Origin: Candidatus Omnitrophota bacterium | Lineage (GTDB): Bacteria > Omnitrophota > Omnitrophia > Omnitrophales > Aquincolibacteriaceae | DNA length: 64,000 nt | NCBI GenBank assembly: GCA_903884815.1 | Contig: CAISGE010000043.1 | Span: 701 to 64,700, forward strand | Reading direction: 5' to 3' | Shown here: positions 1 through 11,015 of the stretch, piece by piece | Position numbering within the stretch: position 1 is the stretch's first letter | How the letters are laid out: each line of letters starts with the position of its first letter | The notes under the pieces: generated by a model | Databases searched by the model: none | Seen by the model: the letters and a program-made list of their open reading frames with translations, nothing else | Told to the model about the DNA's origin: nothing | Position numbers and translations under genes: made by a program

Positions 1-127
1 TTTTCTCTGTACCATTTAATGAGGTTTTTATGGAGAGGGTCTATCAATTTCGACTCAAGCTCACTTAGATTGTCCCGAGCATCTTCCATTTTATGCTCTC
101 TCTCTTTTAAGGCATGTCTTAGAACGT

Positions 128-1477
128 CTACGCATGGCTATGTTCAAACGCCTCTCGCAAGACTGCCTGCGTCAAAAGTTCGGTTCTACATTCACGTTCG
201 ATTACTTGCTTCTCTAAATCATAAATCATGGCCATCAGCTCATTAACCCTCGCAACGATAATTCGTTGTTCCCAAATGGGCGGCAACGGAATAACCAAAT
301 TCATCAATGTGGGAAGTTTTATATTTGGTTGCCCCGCCATCTGATATGCGGCCTTCTTGATTTCAGGCTGTTTCGAACGAAGTAACATTAAGATATAATC
401 CTGATTGCTGTGCGAGGTTGGTTTAATACCTATCATGCTGTCGGGAAAACACATGTCCATCCCTAGAACGCCTAAATTTCCTATAGTCCCGCCAACGATA
501 GCCACTGCAATCGTACCTTTCACGAACTGTTTGGAAACTGAGAATCCTTTATCGTTTAAGGTTTGCTTAAAATCTGTTATGACATCTCCATTGGCACTTA
601 GAGAGCCTATCTGAATGAAAGGATATTTCCCGCCGTAACAGCTTTTGTCATTCCTTGGCCGAATCGAGAATCGACCTCTTTCAAACAATGCATAGTTGCC
701 AAACTTGCACCACACCCACCCTTCGGGCAAAACCATTTTGGTCTCTTCATCTGACGGAGGCGTTAAAATCTTTTCCTTACGCATTTTGCCTTTCGACACA
801 AGAATGTCTCTCTCGACTTGGATTTTCGCAAGAAGCTTTGAGGCATGATTTTCCCCTCTAGTCAGATGTGGATTTTGCCTCCGCCACTCCGAGGTAAGGT
901 TGCCAGCGATAGCTTCTTGAAGAATGGACTGACGTAGATATTTTAGATAATCAATCTGTTCTAAGTGGGTGGAACTCAATGCGTCAATTTTGTCAAAGCT
1001 TGAATTAATGCTATCTAACATTTTTTTTTGGTCGGATACAGACTTATGAATTGATAACCGTTGCCGAAGGAAAAACTCTTCTTTTATTCTTACCCGCCCC
1101 ATCCCTTTTGTTAACTGGTACAGCATATTTAAAAATAATCTTTGGCGGAAAAGATGTATCAAGTAATCTGGCAAAATAATTTTATCGTTGATTTCAAAAG
1201 TGGGCATTTCATTCGTAACAACTGCGCCGTCTAACTCTGCGGGAACTAGGCCGAAAGCTCCAGTATGGGCTGCCAGCCGTGAATAAATAAAGGAACCGCC
1301 CCTAACACGGTACGCTTTGTCTGCTTTTATATTTATACCTTTTTTTTCTTCCCGCAAACTCACAACGCCTGTTTTCGATATCGTCACAAGCTTATACATT
1401 TCATTCGCATGGATAGAAACATCGTCCTCGTATTGCTTAAGAAATGTCCCCAACTCAACGGCAATCATCTCATGCAT
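128..1477 (-). CDS. hsdS: Type I restriction-modification specificity subunit HsdS (two target-recognition domains)
   Basis: 449 aa. Overlaps hsdM by 8 nt, suggesting translational coupling. Two-repeat architecture with central and C-terminal coiled-coil spacers typical of HsdS. Confidence 0.8.
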   Translation of the reverse strand: MHEMIAVELGTFLKQYEDDVSIHANEMYKLVTISKTGVVSLREEKKGINIKADKAYRVRGGSFIYSRLAAHTGAFGLVPAELDGAVVTNEMPTFEINDKIILPDYLIHLFRQRLFLNMLYQLTKGMGRVRIKEEFFLRQRLSIHKSVSDQKKMLDSINSSFDKIDALSSTHLEQIDYLKYLRQSILQEAIAGNLTSEWRRQNPHLTRGENHASKLLAKIQVERDILVSKGKMRKEKILTPPSDEETKMVLPEGWVWCKFGNYALFERGRFSIRPRNDKSCYGGKYPFIQIGSLSANGDVITDFKQTLNDKGFSVSKQFVKGTIAVAIVGGTIGNLGVLGMDMCFPDSMIGIKPTSHSNQDYILMLLRSKQPEIKKAAYQMAGQPNIKLPTLMNLVIPLPPIWEQRIIVARVNELMAMIYDLEKQVIERECRTELLTQAVLREAFEHSHA

Positions 1478-2906
1478 TACTGAGCTCCTTTTTCAGCTTC
1501 TCTAGGAGCTCGTCACTTTTTCGAAACGAATCGTGGAGCATAGAAACAATCTCAGCACTCGAATTGAAGGACTCTTCTTCGGGCACATGCGGATTCTTGA
1601 TGTCGAGGCTGTATCCGTGCTCAGCTATCGTTTTTATTGAAACCTTCCACGCCTGCTCGTTCTCTTTGCGTTTCTTCCACCACTTTTTGAGACTTTCGAA
1701 TTCACTCGTTTGAATGGGCTTGGTTTTACTATACGCCTTCACAGCCTCTGGAAGCTTGTGCTCCCAATACCAAATTTCTTTAGTCGGCTTACCCCTTTCG
1801 AAGAAAAGAAGGTTCGTTGCAACACTGGCATAAGGCTGGAATACTGAGTTGGGTAATCGAACAATGGTATGCAGATTGCAGTTCTCAAGAAAGTGTTGGC
1901 GTATTCGTTGCTTTACGCCATCGCCTGTAAGCGAACCATCAGGCAAAACAATACCGGCCCGACCACCTTCGTTTAGATATCGAATCATTAGAAGCAGAAA
2001 CAAGTCCGCACTTTCCATTGTACGAAAGTTCTGAGGGAAATTCGTCTCTACTCCGTCTGTCACAGAGGCACCAAACGGCGGATTAGCAAGAATCACATCC
2101 ACACGGTCTTTCTGACCTATCGATGTGTATTCACGATTCAAGCTGTCTGTGTAATCGATGTTAGGAACTTCTATATCGTGCAAAATAAGGTTCGTGACAC
2201 TCAACATAAAAGGCAGAGGCTTGAATTCCATTCCATGGATTGTTTTCTCAAGCTCCTTAAGGTCTTTAACTCCCTTAACATCTTGCTTCCGAATGTTCTC
2301 AATGGCGCTAGTCAAGAAGCCACCTGTACCGCACGCCGGGTCTAATACTTTCTCCCCCAAGCGAGGGTTAATCATCTCTGTAATAAACTCGGTAAGCGCA
2401 CGAGGCGTATAAAACTCACCATAGTTGCCAGCATTTTGCAAGTCTCGCAAAATCGTTTCATAAATATCGCCAAACACATGACGGTCCTCGGAGCTGTTGA
2501 AGTCAATCTGGTTGAGCAGGTTAATCACTTGGCGAAGGATGGTGCCGTTTTTCATGTAGTTATTTGTGCCATCAAATATCTCACGGATAATCAATGCACG
2601 CTTGCTACCAGAGCTGACATCAAGATTCTTGAGTTGAGGGATTAGCTTGTCATCAATGAAATTCTTGAGCTCATCACCAGTCATCCCTTCGTCATCAGCC
2701 GCCCAATTACGCCACTGTAATTTTTTAGGCATAGCTGAAACATACTTGCCGTTAAGAAGCTCGAGCTCTTTATCTTTGTCATCCAATATTTTGAGACTAA
2801 TCATCCAGCCGAGCTGTTCAATGCGTTGAGCGTCACCGGATACGCCCGGGTCTTTGCGCATAATGTTTTGCAGGGCTTTGATAATACCGCCGATATTTTT
2901 CATCAC
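1470..2906 (-). CDS. hsdM: Type I R-M N6-adenine DNA methyltransferase HsdM
   Basis: 478 aa. Carries the ANPPFG catalytic motif (VILANPPFGAS) and the N-terminal HsdM domain. Confidence 0.9.
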   Translation of the reverse strand: MMKNIGGIIKALQNIMRKDPGVSGDAQRIEQLGWMISLKILDDKDKELELLNGKYVSAMPKKLQWRNWAADDEGMTGDELKNFIDDKLIPQLKNLDVSSGSKRALIIREIFDGTNNYMKNGTILRQVINLLNQIDFNSSEDRHVFGDIYETILRDLQNAGNYGEFYTPRALTEFITEMINPRLGEKVLDPACGTGGFLTSAIENIRKQDVKGVKDLKELEKTIHGMEFKPLPFMLSVTNLILHDIEVPNIDYTDSLNREYTSIGQKDRVDVILANPPFGASVTDGVETNFPQNFRTMESADLFLLLMIRYLNEGGRAGIVLPDGSLTGDGVKQRIRQHFLENCNLHTIVRLPNSVFQPYASVATNLLFFERGKPTKEIWYWEHKLPEAVKAYSKTKPIQTSEFESLKKWWKKRKENEQAWKVSIKTIAEHGYSLDIKNPHVPEEESFNSSAEIVSMLHDSFRKSDELLEKLKKELSNA

Positions 2907-2912
2907 AACTCC

Positions 2913-5309
2913 TTAGGCTACAGCGTAAATTTCGCGTTCAAGCTCTTCGATAGCTTCTAAATACTTATCTCTGCCACCAAATATTTTCACAATTTCAGCA
3001 GGGGTTCCAAATCGGTTGAAGGGTTCTACCCTTAAAACTGAAGGGTCTTCAATGTTGTCTATGCCCTCATCGGCATACTTATCCAACAAGGCATTCAGAA
3101 TTGTGCGAGCCTTATCCTCATACTTCGTGAAATAATTACGCTTCTTCACTTTGTCCGCACGCTCACGGCGTGTAAGAGGTGGCTTATCCCAAGCGATATG
3201 ACAAATAAGGTCGAATGCGTCCAAATCTTTCTTCACCTCAGAGAGGAGATTGTCGAGCATGATTCCATGTGATTCTAACTGGTCAATGACTGCTCGTTTC
3301 TTCTCGAAGCTATTCCACCTTGCAAGAAAGTCATCAAGAGACCGGAACTCCTTTAAGAGCCCATTTTTTGTATAGTCCTTCAGTGTCTCCGTAATTAATT
3401 TGCCATTCAAATCCAAATGCTGAACTCTCTCATTGAGCACAGAGACATCCACTCCGTTCACATAAACCTTCGGTCCTGGCCATGAGGTAATCGTTCCGCC
3501 CTTGATAATCTCGGGCTTGTTTACGCCGTCAGTTTTATCAAAGTCAACGGGCTTGCCTGTTTCACCGTCGATTATTTGAGTATCTCTCTCCGGGTTTATA
3601 ACTTCATCCGTCAGCTCTTCATCAGCCTTAATGACTTTAATCATTACCGGGTCACCATCAAAATCAGGGCGGGCAAAGATGTCTGTTGCGCTTCGAAAGT
3701 CAATAATAGTAAAGAAGGTTTTCCCGAAGTCCTCTCTGATGCGAGTTCCACGTCCTATGATTTGCTTGAATTCGGTAACAGATTTGATGTTCGAGTCGAG
3801 CACTATGAGTTTGCAGGTCTGAGCATCAACGCCAGTCGTCATTAACTTGGATGTAGTCGCAATAACAGGGTAGCGCTCTTCAGGATTAATGAAATTATCC
3901 ACCTGACGCTTGCCCTCATCGTCATCGCCTGTAATCCGCATCACGTACTTGTAATTCTCCTTTACCAAAGCAGGATTGAGTGTGACGAGAGCCCGTCGCA
4001 TGCGTTCTGCATGCTCAATATCAACGCAAAAAATAATCGTTTTATCAAAGCGATTGGTCTTCGTGAGATATTCAGTTACTTTTTTGGCAACCATTTGCGT
4101 TCGCTCATCTATGACGATGCTCTTGTCATAGTCCTTCGTATTGTAGATACGGTCTTCCACCTCTTTGCCGTCTTTGTCGGTCTTGCCTTCTTCAGGACGC
4201 CATCCTTCAAGGTCTGTATTGAGTCCCACACGGATGACCTTATAGGGTGCTAAAAATCCATCCTCAATGCCCTGCTTGAGCGTGTAGGTATAAACAGGGT
4301 CACCAAAGTATTCTATGTTCGAGACTTCTTTTGTCTCTTTCGGGGTGGCGGTCATGCCTATTTGCGTTGCAGAGCTGAAATAGTTCAATATCTCTCGCCA
4401 TGCGCTATCGGCATCGGCACTTCCTCTGTGGCACTCATCAACCACCACGAGGTCGAAGAAATCACGGCTAAATTCTTTGTAGGCATCCTTGTCCTCGTTG
4501 TAATCCACGAGCCCTTGATAGAGAGCAAGGTAGACCTCAAATGCCTTATCAATCTTCTTATGCTTGATAATCGTCATCTTGTCTTTGAAGTGCTTGAAGT
4601 CATTACGCTTGGTCTGGTCAAGAAGCACGTTGCGGTCAGCCAAGAATAGAATTCTCTTCTTCATGCCACTTTTCCAAAGGCGGTAGATAATCTGAAAAGC
4701 CGTATAGGTTTTTCCTGTTCCAGTAGCCATTACGAGAAGGATTCTGTTCTGTCCTTTAGCAATGGCTTCGACTGTTCGATTGATGGCAATTTGCTGATAG
4801 TAGCGTGGAGTTTTTCCGGAGCCTTCGTAGAAATAGTCAAAACTTGCAATCTCTTCCTGCTTCGGCGTGGCAATGCCCTTGAACTTCTTGTACATGCTCC
4901 AGAGAGCATCAGGGGAAGGAAAATTTTCTAAGGTCAGCTCAATTTCAATAGACGCTGAAAATCCGGAGCTGTCATGCTGAATAAACCCGTCCCCATTTGA
5001 ACTAAAAGCAACAGGCACATCCAGTATTTTCGCATACCCGAGAGCTTGTTGCATCCCAGCGCCAACAGAATGGTTGTTATCCTTCGCTTCAATGACAGCT
5101 ATGGGAATGTTAGGCTTGAGATAGAGAATGAAGTCTGCTCGCTTGCGTTCCCCTCGTGCAGTTTTTTGGCCTTTGACAAAAATTCGGCCATCTGTGAAAT
5201 AGACCTCTTCTCGGACTTGCTTCTGGATATCCCACCCGGCTTTGACGAGAGCTGGCAAGATGAACTGCGTGCAAATATCTCTTTCGGAGAGTTCTTTTTT
5301 GGATGTCAT
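2913..5309 (-). CDS. hsdR: Type I restriction endonuclease subunit HsdR (short form, 798 aa)
   Basis: N-terminal MTSKKELSERDICTQFILPALVKAGWD nuclease domain followed by SF2 helicase motifs (MATGTGKT, DECHRG). Confidence 0.9.
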   Translation of the reverse strand: MTSKKELSERDICTQFILPALVKAGWDIQKQVREEVYFTDGRIFVKGQKTARGERKRADFILYLKPNIPIAVIEAKDNNHSVGAGMQQALGYAKILDVPVAFSSNGDGFIQHDSSGFSASIEIELTLENFPSPDALWSMYKKFKGIATPKQEEIASFDYFYEGSGKTPRYYQQIAINRTVEAIAKGQNRILLVMATGTGKTYTAFQIIYRLWKSGMKKRILFLADRNVLLDQTKRNDFKHFKDKMTIIKHKKIDKAFEVYLALYQGLVDYNEDKDAYKEFSRDFFDLVVVDECHRGSADADSAWREILNYFSSATQIGMTATPKETKEVSNIEYFGDPVYTYTLKQGIEDGFLAPYKVIRVGLNTDLEGWRPEEGKTDKDGKEVEDRIYNTKDYDKSIVIDERTQMVAKKVTEYLTKTNRFDKTIIFCVDIEHAERMRRALVTLNPALVKENYKYVMRITGDDDEGKRQVDNFINPEERYPVIATTSKLMTTGVDAQTCKLIVLDSNIKSVTEFKQIIGRGTRIREDFGKTFFTIIDFRSATDIFARPDFDGDPVMIKVIKADEELTDEVINPERDTQIIDGETGKPVDFDKTDGVNKPEIIKGGTITSWPGPKVYVNGVDVSVLNERVQHLDLNGKLITETLKDYTKNGLLKEFRSLDDFLARWNSFEKKRAVIDQLESHGIMLDNLLSEVKKDLDAFDLICHIAWDKPPLTRRERADKVKKRNYFTKYEDKARTILNALLDKYADEGIDNIEDPSVLRVEPFNRFGTPAEIVKIFGGRDKYLEAIEELEREIYAVA

Positions 5310-5339
5310 TCTATGTTCTTCTTTTGCATATCTAAATTT

Positions 5340-6050
5340 TTAGACAACGTCAGGGAAACTTTTGAGAATCTTGTATTTCAAATAGGTATTAGTGGCTTCG
5401 ACAACTTCAATACGAACGCCTTTGAAACCAATCGTTTTACTTTCGTTTAAATCATACTGAATTTCTTGCGAGAATGCAGGGCGCATTACGTCATTGGAAA
5501 GTTCTCTATACATAAACTTAACGCTATTTCCTACCTTGCCATTATAGAGAAGCTCTTGTTGAAAACTTGCCTTATCGATGGCACGTATTTTTTTCAGCTG
5601 GTAGTTTGGCGTTGGTTCAGGAGGGCCTTTTGTATACGGATGGCTACCAGCAAGTAAAAAAACTTCTACGGAACTATTTTTTTTAGAAATTCGCAATCCA
5701 CCCACTGCTTGAAAAGGCGCCCCGCCAACAGTAAAGTCCTTTGAAGAAAAATACGTCCAATTAGAATCTTCGCATTGAACAATCAAGTCGCCCTGCGGTA
5801 TTGTTACTACTGAGCCATAAAGAAATGTCGTCTTGAAATCCCCCTTCGAGTGGACTTCATTAAGGAGTTTCATGCCCTGATAAGTATAGAGCGTGCCTTT
5901 TGAAACAATTGTGTCGCCCAGCTCCGCTTGTTGCTCTTGATTCAGTTTCGGGATATCTATTTTTTCTAAATTTGGCTGGATTCCTCTTAATGAAGCTGTA
6001 GCGCATCCGCTCATCAATATTAAAATCGCCGCAAGGTATATTTTTTTCAT
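5340..6050 (-). CDS. Lipoprotein of unknown function
   Basis: Lipobox signal (MKKIYLAAILILMSGC). Overlaps the upstream HTH gene by 4 nt. Confidence 0.6.
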   Translation of the reverse strand: MKKIYLAAILILMSGCATASLRGIQPNLEKIDIPKLNQEQQAELGDTIVSKGTLYTYQGMKLLNEVHSKGDFKTTFLYGSVVTIPQGDLIVQCEDSNWTYFSSKDFTVGGAPFQAVGGLRISKKNSSVEVFLLAGSHPYTKGPPEPTPNYQLKKIRAIDKASFQQELLYNGKVGNSVKFMYRELSNDVMRPAFSQEIQYDLNESKTIGFKGVRIEVVEATNTYLKYKILKSFPDVV

Positions 6051-6229
6051 TTACTCTTCCGGCCCAATAGCTTCTCGATGTGATAAGTTTGTATCTTATT
6101 TGGCGTCTTTATCTTTCCGGTAAACCACCTATTGACCGTGCAGAAAGAAACCCCTAGCCTTTCGGCGAGTTCCTGCTGGGAGATACGCTTTTCCAGTCGG
6201 TATGTTTCTAATTTTTCTATCAAGTTCAT
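6047..6229 (-). CDS. XRE-family helix-turn-helix transcriptional regulator (60 aa)
   Basis: HTH_3-like motif ISQQELAERLGVSFCTVNRW. Confidence 0.65.
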   Translation of the reverse strand: MNLIEKLETYRLEKRISQQELAERLGVSFCTVNRWFTGKIKTPNKIQTYHIEKLLGRKSK

Positions 6230-6297
6230 ATGTTTAGCCTCTTATAGCATCTTATATCATGTCGTGATAAACTCCAATTGGTTATTCTGGAGGAAAA

Positions 6298-7224
6298 ATG
6301 GCACTTAAAACATCGAAAAAAACATACCAAAAAAACTACCTGCATTCGCAGTTAAGATGGCAAATAGCGGTAAGAAATCCCGATTTTTCAAAAGCTTTGA
6401 TTCAGCTATTTAAAAAAATCGATGAGATTAACGAGAAGTTTGGCCTACCTTCAATAACTCATCCAGATTATAAAAGCGCTGTTAAAAAACTCGATGCGCA
6501 TTCCGACCTCGAAAGAATGCACGTAATTCTTCCCTTGATAGAAAAACTCAAAGAAAAGTTCAATCTTTCTACAATTGAAGTCAATACAGCACGCCTGCCT
6601 GATGACATAAGAAGGATATTTAATATTTTCACAGCCCCCGTTAGATTTTTATGGAATGAAAATCCGCATCCCGGCAGATATATAGACCTTCGCATCGATG
6701 CACTCGCTGATTTGGAAGTTATCAAGTGTCAGGTGGGCATGATGATGAAAGTCATTTGCAATGGCGAGAAAGAAGGCGTTTTTAAAATACCTGGCCGAGA
6801 ATCTCACAAATTGCACTTGAGCAAAGCGAGTACATATATTCGAGTCTTTGACATGAGAAAAAGAAAGCCGCCTGTCCCGTATGAAGAAATTGCTACAAAG
6901 CTACAGAAGGATGGTTTCTATAAGGGATTAACTTTGAAAAAAGTGGTCAATTCCGCACGGCACGATTTTAGTTTAATCTTTGAAGAAATATACGGTGTCC
7001 CTTTCAAACAATACGACGCAAAGAAATTTAAAAGTGCTGGCATTAAGGAGTGCGCCATATGCGAAAAAAGGTCGCAGTGCAAGGAACTTTGCGCCCCAAT
7101 TTCTTATTTGCTATCGCTAGAAGAGGTTAAGCAACAACATTTTATAAGCACAAAAGCAGACGCAAGAGAGCAGTACAGAGATACCCACTCAGAGGAAGAC
7201 GCAGAAGAGCACGCCAATATCTAG
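6298..7224 (+). CDS. Hypothetical protein (308 aa), island cargo
   Basis: Good RBS (GGAGGaaaaATG). Contains a CxxC...C...C cluster near the C-terminus. No recognisable family. Confidence 0.5.
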   Translation: MALKTSKKTYQKNYLHSQLRWQIAVRNPDFSKALIQLFKKIDEINEKFGLPSITHPDYKSAVKKLDAHSDLERMHVILPLIEKLKEKFNLSTIEVNTARLPDDIRRIFNIFTAPVRFLWNENPHPGRYIDLRIDALADLEVIKCQVGMMMKVICNGEKEGVFKIPGRESHKLHLSKASTYIRVFDMRKRKPPVPYEEIATKLQKDGFYKGLTLKKVVNSARHDFSLIFEEIYGVPFKQYDAKKFKSAGIKECAICEKRSQCKELCAPISYLLSLEEVKQQHFISTKADAREQYRDTHSEEDAEEHANI

Positions 7225-7243
7225 CAAAACAACATAGCCACAA

Positions 7244-7591
7244 TTGAGAGGGCGAGGGCAAATAGCTTCTCGCCTTTTTTGTTTTCAGTCATACCCCTTT
7301 TTTCACACTCCCGCAGGCGATGCTTTCCCAGCCTCGCTTTTTTATCCCCAGCAGATGGTCATGGGTATACCCGTTTTTTCACTTTCCCATAGGTGTATGA
7401 AACATGACACCGCAGAAAACAAACCAATTCAAGAGTGGGAAAGGAGGTATGAAAAGCCTCTCTCAGCAGAGGACTACAAGCAAATCTGTAGCAATCTCGA
7501 CGGGTTTTTCACACTGCTAAAAAAATGGGACCTAGCAAATCAAACACAAATAAAAGGAGACTGCCATGAGAAAAACAGTAAAAACATTTGA
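7244..7591 (+). CDS. Hypothetical small protein (start uncertain)
   Basis: ORF only. The N-terminal part may be non-coding. Confidence 0.25.
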   Translation: MRGRGQIASRLFCFQSYPFFHTPAGDAFPASLFYPQQMVMGIPVFSLSHRCMKHDTAENKPIQEWERRYEKPLSAEDYKQICSNLDGFFTLLKKWDLANQTQIKGDCHEKNSKNI

Positions 7592-7838
7592 ATACAACGG
7601 TGTAACCCTAACCTATGCGCATAAAAAATATAGGTGGAATGGCTGCTGGCGTGATGTCCCCACCGTTACTATCCGGAGGAATTACCTAGATAAAAAATCC
7701 GACTCAAAACGGCCCACATTTTACAGTGAGGTCGACATCAATAATCTTGCAATAGCTATGTGTGAATTAAGAGATTACATGCTATGCGCAGAGAGATTGG
7801 ATGAGCCCGGATATTGTATGGATTGGAACATTGGTTAA
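7566..7838 (+). CDS. Hypothetical protein (90 aa)
   Basis: RBS AAGGAG 8 nt upstream of the ATG. Confidence 0.5.
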   Translation: MRKTVKTFEYNGVTLTYAHKKYRWNGCWRDVPTVTIRRNYLDKKSDSKRPTFYSEVDINNLAIAMCELRDYMLCAERLDEPGYCMDWNIG

Positions 7839-7877
7839 AAAGCGTAGTGAAAATTAAACATAAAAAAGGAGAAAACA

Positions 7878-8207
7878 ATGCCAACGCTACTGAATGACGA
7901 CAGCGACTACGTACCATTTATAAACCCAAGCCAGATTACAGACGGGGAAGAAGTCGAATTTGTGTCGGAAGGGAAATATACAGACGACCAGTTCGGTTCC
8001 AATCGACTGCAAATGGACGTTCGTTTTTCGAATGGGCAAGTACAGAGACTTACTGTAAATAAAACGTCTCAAAAAAACTTGTCGACCGTCTATGGACCGG
8101 AAACCGAAGCTTGGGTTAATCGCAAAGCCCGAATAACTGCAACTAAAAGGCCAACGAGTGTGCCCGGAAAGTGGAAATTCGTAGTAACCCTCTACCCTAT
8201 CGAATAA
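7878..8207 (+). CDS. Hypothetical protein (109 aa)
   Basis: RBS AAAGGAG upstream of the ATG. Confidence 0.5.
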   Translation: MPTLLNDDSDYVPFINPSQITDGEEVEFVSEGKYTDDQFGSNRLQMDVRFSNGQVQRLTVNKTSQKNLSTVYGPETEAWVNRKARITATKRPTSVPGKWKFVVTLYPIE

Positions 8208-8229
8208 CACCAACCACCGTAGAGAGCAA

Positions 8230-8330
8230 CATCCCTATGGATATACATATATATACATATATGTTTTGTACTTTTTAGCATAGTTTTTCTTATGATTAAA
8301 ACTATATAAAAATACATATCCATAGGGATG
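8230..8330. repeat. Inverted repeat (15-bp perfect arms CATCCCTATGGATAT / ATATCCATAGGGATG) flanking a roughly 60-bp AT-rich spacer
   Basis: Read directly. Lies between the cargo genes and the recombinase promoter region. Confidence 0.6.
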
Positions 8331-8770
8331 CATGCTCAGAAAGAAAGCGTTATGCCCCTAGATGGAACGAATAAGAAATGCGAACAGTGCCAAGAGAAGT
8401 GCAAGCAGTGGCGGCAGGTCACAATAATTCACTGCCCTTTTTTTCGGAGCAAACAAAGTCTGCCTACCCCTTCAGCTAAGGCTGGAACCACCAGGATGAC
8501 TTCTGGGACACCCTTTTCTGAAGATGAGCATAGCACCTAGGTAAGACGCACCGGACCACCCTTTAAGCAGGCCGGACGCAAATACCAGCGATTTAACAAA
8601 GCTAAGCGATATAGACGCTTTGGGAGCTTATATGCAACCCCAGCATAAACAACGAATTCGCCCCTGAATTTAAAGGGGTTACGCACTTAATCCCACCTTG
8701 GCGGGCGTCGTTAATAAGCTATAATAAGCTATAAAACGCCATAATCGACCAACAGAAAAGGGGAATTGCT

Positions 8771-10279
8771 ATGAAAGCTGTCATTTACGCAAGAGTTTCG
8801 TCAAAAGAACAGGAGCAGGAGGGCTATTCAATTCCGGCACAGCTTAAACTTCTCAAGGAGTATGCCGCAAAAAACAACTATCAGATTGTGAAGGAGTTCG
8901 TGGACATTGAAACCGCCAAAAAGGCTGGACGGGAAAATTTCAATACCATGATTCAGTTTGTAAAAGCTGATGTGAATATCAAGGCTGTTCTATGCGAAAA
9001 AACGGACAGGCTCTACAGAAACTTCAAAGACTATGTGACAGTCGATGAACTCGACTTAGAAATCCATCTCGTTAAAGAGTCAGAGGTTTTAAGCAAAAAC
9101 TCAAAATCGCATCAAAAGTTTATTCACGGGATAAAGGTATTGATGGCTAAAAACTACATCGACAACCTTGTTGAGGAAACTCGCAAAGGCATGCTTGAAA
9201 AAGCCGAGCGGGGCATATTCCCATCCGGGGCCTCCTTGGGGTATATCAATGCTGAGAAAAAGGCAGAGGGCAATACGATAAGGTATCTGGAGCTAGATAA
9301 GACCCGTGCGCCTGTCATAAATAAAATATTCAGACTCTATGCTACTGGCAAATACTCTATGGAAAAACTGGCGGAGATAGCTTTTGATGATGGCTTCAGA
9401 AATAAACGTGGTAGCAGAGTGAACAAATCGGTCATTGAGTTCATCCTGAAAAATCCCGTCTATTGCGGTGACTTTAGATGGAACAATCGTCTATATCAGG
9501 GAACACATGAAAAAATTGTGACAAAGGAACTCTTTGAGGCCGCACAAGCTCAGCTTAACGGGTCGAACAGACCTAAGCTCGTTAAGGGATTCGCTTATTC
9601 CGGGCTCCTTACTTGTGCAAAATGCGGATTCTCTATCACTGCCGAAATAAAGAAAGGGCGATACGTCTATTACCACTGCACTGAACGAGGCGGGCCTTGT
9701 GGCAATGCGTATGTCAGAGAAGAGGAATTAACCAAGCAGTTTGCCGAGATAGTAAAACAAATTCATATCGATGATGAGATATTGGAGTCCGTTAAAAAAG
9801 CTCTGCTAGAAAGTCATGAAGATGAACGCATGTACCATGCGCAAAAGGTCACGGCACTAAGCGTCCAAAAAGAACGTCTTGAGAATAGGATTCACCAAAT
9901 ATACATCGATAAACTGGATAAGAAAATTTCCAATGACAAATACGAAGCAATGACTTTTGAGTGGAACGAGGAATTAGGCAGAATGCAGAGAGAAATCGCT
10001 AAACACGAGAATGCTGATGCTAATTACCTTTCGCAGGGCGTTCACATTCTCGAACTTTGTAACCGTGCTTACGGTCTGTACTTACAGCAGGAGCCTCGTG
10101 AGGGTGCTAAAATACTGCATACCATACTATCGAACTGCAAGATGGATGGCGTAACTCTAATACCAGAAATGAGAAAGCCCTTTGACATTATCGCCAAAGG
10201 GCTCTCTCGTCTAGAATGGCTCCCCCGCCTGGGATCGAACCAGGGACACTGCGGTTACGGTCTGACTTCAGTTGCCTGA
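8771..10279 (+). CDS. Large serine recombinase (resolvase/invertase N-terminal domain, recombinase domain, zinc ribbon)
   Basis: N-terminal AVIYARVSSKEQ catalytic-Ser motif. C-terminal CAKCG...YYHC zinc ribbon. The last 21 codons as drawn read through the tRNA-Asn 3' exon, so the true stop may be earlier. Confidence 0.85.
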   Translation: MKAVIYARVSSKEQEQEGYSIPAQLKLLKEYAAKNNYQIVKEFVDIETAKKAGRENFNTMIQFVKADVNIKAVLCEKTDRLYRNFKDYVTVDELDLEIHLVKESEVLSKNSKSHQKFIHGIKVLMAKNYIDNLVEETRKGMLEKAERGIFPSGASLGYINAEKKAEGNTIRYLELDKTRAPVINKIFRLYATGKYSMEKLAEIAFDDGFRNKRGSRVNKSVIEFILKNPVYCGDFRWNNRLYQGTHEKIVTKELFEAAQAQLNGSNRPKLVKGFAYSGLLTCAKCGFSITAEIKKGRYVYYHCTERGGPCGNAYVREEELTKQFAEIVKQIHIDDEILESVKKALLESHEDERMYHAQKVTALSVQKERLENRIHQIYIDKLDKKISNDKYEAMTFEWNEELGRMQREIAKHENADANYLSQGVHILELCNRAYGLYLQQEPREGAKILHTILSNCKMDGVTLIPEMRKPFDIIAKGLSRLEWLPRLGSNQGHCGYGLTSVA

Positions 10280-10524
10280 AGAGTCGGACTTTCTCTTTGC
10301 CATATCCAAAATACTTGGACTTAGGCAGCAGGTGTAAAGTCTCTGCACTTGCCCTCCCGCCAAAGGCGGGATGCTAGCTCAGGATAGCCCCAACGCTTTT
10401 TGTTGGGATTTCCCTGACTTAGCCTGCTTATTCACCCTAAAGTTTCCCTTAGGGGCTGCTAACTTTGAGCGTGCTACGCTCACTCGTGCACAGCCGCATG
10501 CTCTACCAGCTGAGCTACAGGGGA
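10217..10524 (-). tRNA. tRNA-Asn(GUU) interrupted by a group I intron (exon 1 10490..10524, exon 2 10217..10257, CCA encoded)
   Basis: Exon sequence is UCCCCUGUAGCUCAGCUGGUAGAGCAUGCGGCUGU / UAACCGCAGUGUCCCUGGUUCGAUCCCAGGCGGGGGAGCCA. It is near-identical in architecture to E. coli tRNA-Asn. The anticodon loop CUGUUAA is restored after removing 232 nt. Confidence 0.7.
10258..10489 (-). ncRNA. Group I self-splicing intron (232 nt) in the anticodon loop of tRNA-Asn
   Basis: The 5' exon ends in U and the intron ends in G. P1 pairs GGCUGU with the IGS GCAGCC, giving a U.G wobble at the splice site. An R-like element (GUGCAGAGACU) and an S-like element (AAGAGAAAGUCCGAC) are present. No internal ORF. 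Confidence 0.6.
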
Positions 10525-10548: not shown

Positions 10549-10788
10549 CTAAAACCATTTTAAGAACTTCCTGCCTGCACCCGTTTTTAAATACTTCTCA
10601 CGAAGCAGCGCTTCTTTCCTAGAACGGTAATCCTCGGAACACAAGAGCGTGAAAGGACCGTTACTTCTTGTCCAAGCGTTCTTTCCTTCGTTGTGTTCTG
10701 CCAAACGAGTCTGAACTGATTTCCGGGTAAATCCGACATAGGACTTACCGTTCTTCAAACTCTTCAAAACATAAACATGATATATCAT
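10549..10788 (-). CDS. GIY-YIG nuclease family protein (79 aa, URI domain)
   Basis: Has YVYVL...GKSYVGFT, the GIY-YIG motif. It ends 24 nt upstream of the tRNA-Asn 5' end. Confidence 0.75.
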   Translation of the reverse strand: MIYHVYVLKSLKNGKSYVGFTRKSVQTRLAEHNEGKNAWTRSNGPFTLLCSEDYRSRKEALLREKYLKTGAGRKFLKWF

Positions 10789-10891: not shown

Positions 10892-11015
10892 AATACGAAT
10901 CCAAGCAAAAAACGTCAAGACTTATCGATTACGGCTCAGCGCTTATCCCTTGGAGGCGTCAATTATAAAGATTGCGGCCCCTGGGTCAATGAGTGTTTTT
11001 GCCAAGTTTTTAGGT

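Follow-up and report, generated by a model that had tools for sequence, protein, structure and literature searches.

A 64,000-nucleotide (nt) stretch of contig CAISGE010000043.1 (assembly GCA_903884815.1, positions 701 to 64,700 of the forward strand), assigned to Candidatus Omnitrophota and here called the window, carries on its minus strand a gene for tRNA-Asn(GUU) with a 232-nt group I intron inserted in its anticodon loop. The gene is probably functional, with the intervening RNA predicted to remove itself as a ribozyme, and the probability of this reading is put at roughly 0.9. The evidence comprises the anatomy of the intron, the conservation and covariation of its fold among relatives, the exact position of the splice junction and an intron-less allele at the orthologous locus; catalysis by the window RNA itself is expected from homology and from the published splicing of other introns inserted between tRNA positions 35 and 36 (hereafter 35/36). 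Judged from sequence and predicted structure, the intron is a group I ribozyme of IC3-like architecture that contains no open reading frame (ORF). It is a further example of an already published kind and brings with it no new mechanism. An earlier note, made from the DNA letters, had described a tRNA-Asn(GUU) gene with a 232-nt intron at these coordinates; that observation is confirmed, because all of the elements it listed are present in their places, the joined exons form a tRNA-Asn and the intron matches the Rfam model Intron_gpI.

The 5' exon ends in C32 U33 G34 U35, with U35 at position -1 relative to the 5' splice site, while the 3' exon starts with U36 A37 and includes both the discriminator G73 and an encoded CCA end. 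The insertion point therefore falls between anticodon nucleotides 35 and 36 (U35/U36). When the exons are joined, ARAGORN reports a tRNA-Asn(GTT) of 76 nt, with a 7-base-pair (bp) acceptor stem that includes one U.G pair, a D stem of GCUC/GAGC, an anticodon stem of UGCGG/CCGCA, the loop CUGUUAA and G as discriminator. At the orthologous locus of a close relative (L123 and L129), an uninterrupted tRNA-Asn(GTT) gene is identical at 76/76 positions to the predicted ligated exons, and a blastn alignment of the window with the intron-less L129 allele stops exactly at 10490 and restarts at 10257. Since this allele serves as a natural control, both the identity of the tRNA, as Asn rather than Thr, and the splice site are settled. 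The canonical 76-nt product that the earlier note had obtained by removing the intron is thus upheld by the ARAGORN call as well as by the match to the L123/L129 gene.

As a group I intron, the insert is recognized by the Rfam model (RF00028) over 10485..10265 of the minus strand, with 51.8 bits, an E-value of 2.9e-10 and the full model covered. This is the sole Rfam match in the whole 64-kb window, and the covariance-model comparison by Infernal, which had been suggested beforehand as a check, came out narrowly in favour, with the score standing against a gathering score of 50 bits. The thermodynamic fold of the intron alone has a z-score of -4.13 relative to dinucleotide shuffles and recovers the P1-loop hairpin, P2, P4-P5, P6a, P8 and P9. 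The internal guide sequence is complementary throughout to the GGCUGU/UAAC junction, one G.U pair included. Its GCAGC(C) portion (intron nt 31-36, 10459..10454) and the 5' exon's (G)GCUGU make up P1, with U35.G31 at the splice site, and its GUUA portion and the 3' exon's UAAC make up a P10 of 4 bp that is contiguous with P1. The wobble-paired, U-ended 5' exon that had been predicted is accordingly seen, as are the R-like GUGCAGAGACU and S-like AAGAGAAAGUCCGAC elements and the terminal G of the intron, which is located at 10258 and is the omega-G, a nucleotide that is also G in all reconstructed homologues. P7 is formed by nt 147 and 149-152 pairing with nt 200-204 (10286..10290), J4/5 is AAA, and the P4-P5 domain is also aligned by the Rfam model. 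The anatomy is compact, without P2.1, without P5abc and without an insert between P7 and the 3' strand of P3 (P3'). No homing endonuclease ORF is present inside the intron, there being no ORF of 60 or more amino acids (aa) within its 232 nt; the sole ORF that touches it is the antisense tail of a recombinase gene, which covers its last 22 nt. The fit to subgroup IC3 is by anatomy (P1-P10 alone, no P7-P3' insert) and by published labelled sequences only.

Relatives were gathered by one restrictive pattern scan of species-representative genomes, the pattern consisting of the tRNA-Asn D arm plus C32-U35, followed 125-155 nt downstream by the core motif GYAGAGACT. The scan returned at least 119 loci, and at least 119 species-level genomes across many phyla, mostly metagenome-assembled genomes (MAGs), carry such genes. 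By scripted reconstruction, 112 of the 118 evaluable matches listed rebuild to a full cloverleaf tRNA-Asn with the loop CUGU/UAA; in these 112 loci among the matches listed, the intron follows U35, ends in G and is 203-277 nt in length. According to submitter labels, the hosts among the matches listed include 52 Clostridia MAGs, 13 'Deltaproteobacteria'/Thermodesulfobacteriota, 10 Nitrospirota, 9 Burkholderiales-type genomes, 7 Binatia, 6 Planctomycetia, 4 Omnitrophota, 3 Bdellovibrionota, 2 Spirochaetia, 1 Saccharibacteria and 2 archaea-labelled genomes, along with others. From the same matches, 46 sequences with less than 85% mutual identity were drawn into an alignment (A1), onto which a hand-drawn P1-P10 structure was projected; the controls were structures with 3' partners slid by 1-3 columns and shuffles. 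Standard pairs occupy 81.6% of cells in the 46 homologues versus 35-44% in the slid structures. Covariation scores 0.412, as against 0.130 in shuffles (0/500 shuffles reach 0.412), and double-sided changes occur in 43 of the 65 pairs.

Helix by helix, P2 has changed on both sides in 8/8 pairs while remaining paired in 89.7% of cells, P3 shows compensatory changes in 5/6 pairs (88% of cells paired) and P9 does so in 5/6 pairs (91.5%). P4 is paired in 100% of cells with two pairs covarying, the proximal pairs of P5 are conserved, those of P6 are conserved or covarying, and distal P6 varies in length. The outer pairs of P8 are paired in 100% of cells and its inner pairs are compensatory in 5/5 cases. 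No variation is seen among the 46/46 homologues in the five pairs of P7 (with 10286..10290), in the U.G pair at the 5' splice site, in GCAGC or in omega-G; AGUCC is likewise invariant and J8/7 nearly so. P10 is kept in the window's sub-lineage, although only 58.8% of its cells are paired family-wide, and the P1-loop hairpin falls in a gappy part of the alignment, its length varying among relatives or the hairpin being missing. L2 is a GNRA tetraloop in 46/46 sequences and L9 in 35/46; the other 11 L9 rows are longer or of different sequence, those printed being long AT-rich inserts. Other members of the family score 63.6-89.6 bits against the Rfam model. Because of the covariation, the tetraloops and the Rfam results on relatives, the group I fold can be taken as real, conserved and under selection. 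The coordinates of the split gene, of the parts of the intron and of neighbouring features are collected in Table 1.

Table 1. Features of the split tRNA-Asn gene, its intron and its surroundings (window coordinates unless a locus is named)
Feature	Position	Strand	Remarks
tRNA-Asn 5' exon, 35 nt	10524..10490	(-)	tRNA positions 1-35, UCCCCUGUAGCUCAGCUGGUAGAGCAUGCGGCUGU
Intron, 232 nt, GCACGAG...CAGACCG	10489..10258	(-)	intron nt i = window coordinate 10490 - i
tRNA-Asn 3' exon, 41 nt	10257..10217	(-)	positions 36-76, UAACCGCAG...GGGGGAGCCA
Internal guide sequence GUUA/GCAGCC, G27-C36	10463..10454	(-)	GUUAGCAGCC, 10/10 complementary to exon ends
P1-loop extra hairpin	10466..10482	(-)	nt 8-13 with 19-24; minimum free energy (MFE) and centroid folds
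P2 hairpin	10435..10454	(-)	nt 36-43 with 48-55; GAAA tetraloop L2
P3 5' strand, AGCAGG	10423..10428	(-)	nt 62-67; pairs with 10327..10332
P4-P5 domain	10379..10417	(-)	P4 nt 73-78 with 106-111; P5 nt 82-88 with 96-102
P6/P6a extended hairpin	10347..10378	(-)	nt 112-143; in MFE fold
P7 5' strand, within GUGCAGAGACU, bulged A	10338..10343	(-)	nt 147-152; guanosine-binding helix
P3 3' strand, CCUGCU	10327..10332	(-)	nt 158-163
P8 hairpin	10300..10325	(-)	nt 165-190
J8/7 (CAAAGAGAA), then P7 3' strand AGUCC	10286..10299	(-)	
P9 hairpin, GCAA tetraloop L9	10266..10281	(-)	nt 209-214 with 219-224
Omega-G, final intron nucleotide G232	10258	(-)	column G267 invariant in alignment A1
Terminator-like hairpin, 17 pairs + U-rich tail	10208..10171	(-)	8 nt after CCA end; consensus scan only
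79-aa protein, GIY-YIG domain only	10549..10788	(-)	Pfam PF01541, E = 1.4e-14
Promoter-like site	10989..10962		upstream of GIY-YIG ORF; consensus scan only
Large serine recombinase, 502 aa	8771..10279	(+)	Pfam Resolvase, Recombinase, Zn_ribbon_recom
Type I restriction-modification genes in island	hsdS 128-1477; hsdM 1470-2906; hsdR 2913-5309		
Intron-less tRNA-Asn	L123:2265-2340 = L129:10265-10340		closest relative found

By homology with characterised group I introns, a course of splicing can be proposed. The precursor would be transcribed, possibly together with the upstream GIY-YIG ORF, and the (G)GCUGU of the 5' exon would pair with the guide's GCAGC(C) to form P1, placing U35 in the U.G wobble. 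An external guanosine bound in P7 would then attack the bond between U35 and the first G of the intron. In the second step, GUUA would hold the UAAC of the 3' exon in P10 and G232 would take the place of the external guanosine in P7, whereupon the 3'-OH of U35 would attack after G232, so that the exons would be ligated (loop CUGUUAA), the intron released and the anticodon GUU restored. Normal end-processing would yield the 76-nt tRNA, in which the CCA is encoded.

The recent history of the intron can be approached through its nearest relatives. Among the matches listed, the closest intron is that of L026 (labelled 'uncultured bacterium'), with 81% identity over 213 nt; its exons are 100% identical to those of the window, the upstream region is syntenic, gpmA has 86% identity, and the differences between the two P2 helices are compensatory. 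The next-closest introns among the matches listed belong to MAGs labelled PVC, Omnitrophota, Planctomycetia and Spirochaetia. L052, labelled Omnitrophica, contains an 83% aa homologue of a permease in the window beside a truncated copy of the same split tRNA gene, and a homologue of the window's GIY-YIG protein (P0010) comes from an Omnitrophica MAG. Such relatives make it probable that the window's host belongs to Omnitrophota or is related to the PVC group. The intron-less L123/L129 locus (JGI 3300029288) is syntenic with the window as well, sharing rubrerythrin, gpmA (91% aa identity) and the GIY-YIG gene (82% aa identity). Judged by the two proteins that were compared, the window (intron present) groups with L123 (intron absent), and L026 (intron present) falls outside this pair. 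The intron appears, from these sequences, to have been inherited vertically in the window/L026 lineage, and because the closer L123 lacks it while the more distant L026 has it, the simplest history looks to be one in which the L123 lineage underwent precise loss or replacement of an ancestral intron.

The intron is consequently polymorphic among very close relatives, and the window, L123/L129 and L026 are all without a homing endonuclease gene. It is conceivable, though of low probability, that gain or erasure of these tRNA-Asn introns is still going on without the help of an endonuclease. Such a process might work through reverse splicing, or through recombination with spliced copies or cDNA copies; alternatively, the 3' part of the tRNA might be swapped as serine-recombinase islands integrate into the gene, for which it can be cited that the window and L123 both have islands with recombinase ORFs that extend into the tRNA. 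The small GIY-YIG nucleases adjacent to tRNA genes may also be involved in gain or erasure of this kind.

Other readings of the split gene itself have to be weighed. With default settings, ARAGORN calls no tRNA in the entire 64-kb window, and with introns allowed (-i) it reports a tRNA-Thr(CGT) shifted by 2 nt and interrupted by a 232-nt intron at 33/34. A gene for tRNA-Thr(CGU) with an intron between positions 33 and 34 would agree with that call, and the alternative 5' site is also preceded by U. In the Thr solution, however, the intron ends in C and not G, and the guide pairs with CUGU/UAAC rather than with CU/CGUAA; the body of the tRNA is moreover of the Asn type, as seen in U1-A72, G73 and the 76/76 identity to the uninterrupted tRNA-Asn(GTT) in L123. 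That software makes this 2-nt shift from Asn to Thr in error is documented: the ARAGORN/tFind miscall is described for the Asn 35/36 class (Nakagawa et al. 2026, PMC13011429), and Williams (2020) is cited for Asn.4Ug being miscalled now and then as Thr.2Ug. The omega-G, the guide pairing and the intron-less allele together rule out the Thr(CGU) 33/34 call, and a threonine gene accordingly deserves practically no credence. It could be supposed instead that the intron is a decayed, non-splicing relic, the locus being a pseudogene and the cell relying on another tRNA-Asn gene. Several points weigh against a working split gene. The Rfam score is only 1.8 bits over the cut-off, as would suit a relic. 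A P1 of 5-6 bp must compete with the final base pairs of the anticodon stem. The Asn 35/36 introns that have been tested are patescibacterial, a group whose introns were classed as IA nearly throughout, so that activity here is expected by analogy. Finally, the search by default ARAGORN for a second intact tRNA-Asn, which found none, covered the 64-kb window, and such a gene may exist elsewhere in the genome. Yet all of the core positions that are invariant in the 46 homologues, namely P7, J8/7, J6/7, the U.G pair and omega-G, are intact here, and between the window and L026 the introns have diverged by 19% with their helices kept by compensatory changes and their exons 100% identical. Compensatory changes in the intron alongside identical exons indicate that ribozyme and tRNA are both under purifying selection, which makes a dead relic very unlikely and leaves a functional tRNA-Asn gene with a self-removing intron as the preferred reading.

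The neighbourhood of the split tRNA-Asn gene invites two further explanations, both of which concern where the intron came from. The tRNA sits exactly at a shift in G+C content, which is ~0.43 in 1..10000 and ~0.55 beyond, the change occurring at about 10 kb, and the low-GC island (1..~10215) encodes a large serine recombinase and a type I restriction-modification system. On the strand opposite to the tRNA, the recombinase ORF runs with its final ~20 codons antisense across the terminator-like hairpin, the 3' exon and 22 intron nucleotides, from which it might be thought that the intron arrived with the island or belongs to it. Similarity to L026 and L129 runs through the tRNA and ends 2-3 nt after the CCA, so the island abuts the 3' end of the tRNA. 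L026, however, has a homologous intron (81% identity) in identical exons without an island, whereas L123/L129 has a comparable island without an intron, its serine recombinase being a different one (591 aa in L129, 32% identity to that of the window) with an ORF that runs antisense through the whole tRNA. Because each element occurs in the absence of the other, intron and island are independent, and a common origin is extremely improbable. It might also be proposed that the intron is mobilised in trans by the small GIY-YIG protein, acting as a free-standing homing endonuclease; the gene for this protein lies upstream, outside the intron, on the same strand and stops 24 nt short of the tRNA. 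GIY-YIG is a classical homing-endonuclease fold, and small GIY-YIG ORFs homologous to it lie directly upstream of five other intron-containing tRNA-Asn genes (L026, L050, L071, L049 and L080), one of which, L080, differs in both phylum label and intron lineage. Against this, the same family is found upstream of intron-less tRNA-Asn genes (L123:2001-2243; L124/L125:2001-2246), beside which an enzyme that cuts intron-less tRNA-Asn alleles would be unexpected, as well as upstream of tRNA-Val(CAC) and tRNA-Ala(GGC) (L126/L127; L126:569-790, 2033-2296). The protein is a bare 79-aa catalytic domain without a DNA-binding domain, and of the 69 loci whose upstream sequence extends for 400 nt or more, just 6 have the GIY-YIG gene there. 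As the family flanks tRNA genes with and without introns, it is linked to the tRNA genes and not to the intron, and a role in mobilising the latter is highly improbable.

Some observations on these neighbours stand apart from the intron. GIY-YIG-only proteins adjacent to tRNA genes are ~80 aa in size and are encoded in the same orientation as the tRNA, ~10-25 nt ahead of it, and a more distant homologue is found in a rhamnose operon. Large serine recombinases recurrently converge on the 3' end of tRNA-Asn, with their ORFs running antisense into the gene (window 1-10279; L129:10253-20243; L124:2272-3147; L045:5389-5988). In the window and L129 they border low-GC defence islands that contain type I restriction-modification in both cases and Mrr also in L129. 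Beyond the start of the window (L131) lie an AAA-ATPase gene and an IS21 element. A search for an att-like second copy of the tRNA 3' end, covering the window and up to 6 kb before its start (L130, L131), returned only chance matches of 13-18 nt; for serine recombinases, long repeats are not expected.

Introns of this kind have already been placed within a broader catalogue. Williams (2020; bioRxiv 10.1101/2020.01.27.920355) located 5,292 bacterial tRNA genes split by introns and increased the known host/site settings from 4 to 21, among them 'Asn.4Ug', as cited in PMC13011429. Nakagawa et al. (2026, mSystems, PMC13011429) described tRNA-Asn 35/36 introns, demonstrated self-splicing in vitro and, in a set of 4,934 complete genomes, found a total of 28 introns at 35/36, with 19 in Patescibacteria, 3 in Cyanobacteriota, 3 in Nitrospirota and 1 each in Bacillota_A, Bipolaricaulota and Pseudomonadota; 25 of the 28 were classed as IA. 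The view in the earlier note that an Asn(GUU) host with insertion at 35/36 is unusual is true of the classical literature but has been outdated by these two studies, as well as by the occurrence of such genes in at least 119 genomes. Among the rows of Table S5 available from PMC13011429, no Asn 35/36 intron is assigned to Omnitrophota, the only Omnitrophota row being an fMet intron.

The nearest known system is the Asn.4Ug class and, within it, the Bacillota_A IC3 intron, with which the window intron shares host tRNA, insertion site, U-1 and omega-G; the class and the window gene are also alike in being missed or miscalled by ARAGORN. The Bacillota_A intron (GCA_022846035.1) is entered in Table S5 as 210 nt long and IC3-labelled (PMC13011429). 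It resembles that of the window in its P1-loop hairpin, its guide (A)UUAGCAGCC (AUUAGCAGCC), its P2 with GAAA, its GAGACUUUACAC without a P7-P3' insert, the lack of a homing endonuclease gene and a length of ~210-230 nt. The two nevertheless differ in host lineage and have a global identity of 61.6%, i.e. they are ~40% diverged. The Asn/Asp 35/36 introns of Patescibacteria, which self-splice in vitro, follow the same site and splice-site rules as the window intron (PMC13011429); however, patescibacterial tRNA introns are nearly all IA and some of the Asn ones carry HNH homing endonuclease genes, whereas the window intron has no ORF. Likewise, the IA1/IA2 Asn introns of Bipolaricaulota and Cyanobacteriota have an extra P7-P3' segment that the window lacks, and the Nitrospirota entries are IA1. 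Comparison can also be made with the classical IC3 tRNA introns, i.e. those in Leu(UAA) at 34/35, fMet at 33/34, Arg(CCU) and Azoarcus Ile(CAU) at 36/37. Like these, the window intron has a small core (~200-250 nt) with P2-P9 only and no P5abc, and is inserted in the anticodon loop after U; the R (GUGYAGAGACU) and S (AAGRGAnAGUCC) elements are near-identical, and identity to an Acidobacteriota tRNA-Leu IC3 intron is 59%. In the Azoarcus intron, too, L2 and L9 are GNRA loops. The classical introns differ from that of the window, however, in host tRNA and insertion position and therefore also in guide sequence.

Within the family recovered by the scan, additional variation was observed. In 18 of the 46 non-redundant introns, an extra segment of ~35-45 nt lies between the 5' strand of P7 and the 3' strand of P3 (A1 columns ~278-320). 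In these introns (e.g. L010, L011, L024, L030, L047 and L080) the guide is close to the 5' end of the intron, and their labels include Nitrospirota, Binatia, 'Deltaproteobacteria' and Bdellovibrionota. The introns of the window, Clostridia, PVC and Burkholderiales are without the segment, and one host/site class therefore comprises two structural lineages. In a Clostridia MAG, the split tRNA-Asn gene lies directly downstream of a 5S rRNA gene and its intron is unreported by Rfam at E <= 0.001 (L004:6890-7326, minus strand), and a Burkholderiaceae intron scores 36 bits, under the Rfam cut-off (L014:4912-5148). Given such missed and low-scoring members, Rfam-based surveys under-count the Asn 35/36 class. 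Candidatus Vecturithrix has, on a 7.29-Mb contig (L059:4885-5425, minus strand), a tandem pair of intron-containing tRNA-Asn genes separated by ~190 nt, their introns being 250 and 251 nt long.

A separate case concerns the archaea. On a 565-kb contig labelled Candidatus Pacearchaeota (JBAZNI010000001.1; L090:7060-7360, plus strand), a tRNA-Asn(GUU) gene is split at 35/36 by a 225-nt intron that scores 78.2 bits against Intron_gpI and has the guide GUUA/GCAGCU; L042:983-1281 belongs with this case. The tRNA has G1-C72 and its CCA is not encoded. The neighbouring genes are clearly archaeal and include an intein-containing MCM, aIF-2 beta and a universal archaeal KH protein. Archaeal group I introns had been found in rRNA genes only (Nawrocki 2018), and a Pacearchaeota tRNA hit had been dismissed as misbinning (Williams 2020; 10.1101/2020.01.27.920355). 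Since the split tRNA-Asn lies in a clearly archaeal neighbourhood, and in contrast to those reports, an archaeal tRNA gene may here truly be host to a group I intron, whose core is similar to that of the bacterial PVC/Omnitrophota lineage.

The number of species-level genomes in which such genes occur, at least 119, suggests that the Asn 35/36 class is much commoner outside Patescibacteria than was indicated by the survey of complete genomes. To a class that has been described mainly from Patescibacteria, the window adds a probable Omnitrophota/PVC host. The orthologous alleles with and without the intron form a natural pair that is usable for studying intron loss. As default tRNA finders miss the tRNA-Asn gene and a search that permits introns labels it Thr(CGU), a genome from this lineage would seem to be without a tRNA-Asn, and intron-aware mapping is needed in order to see it.

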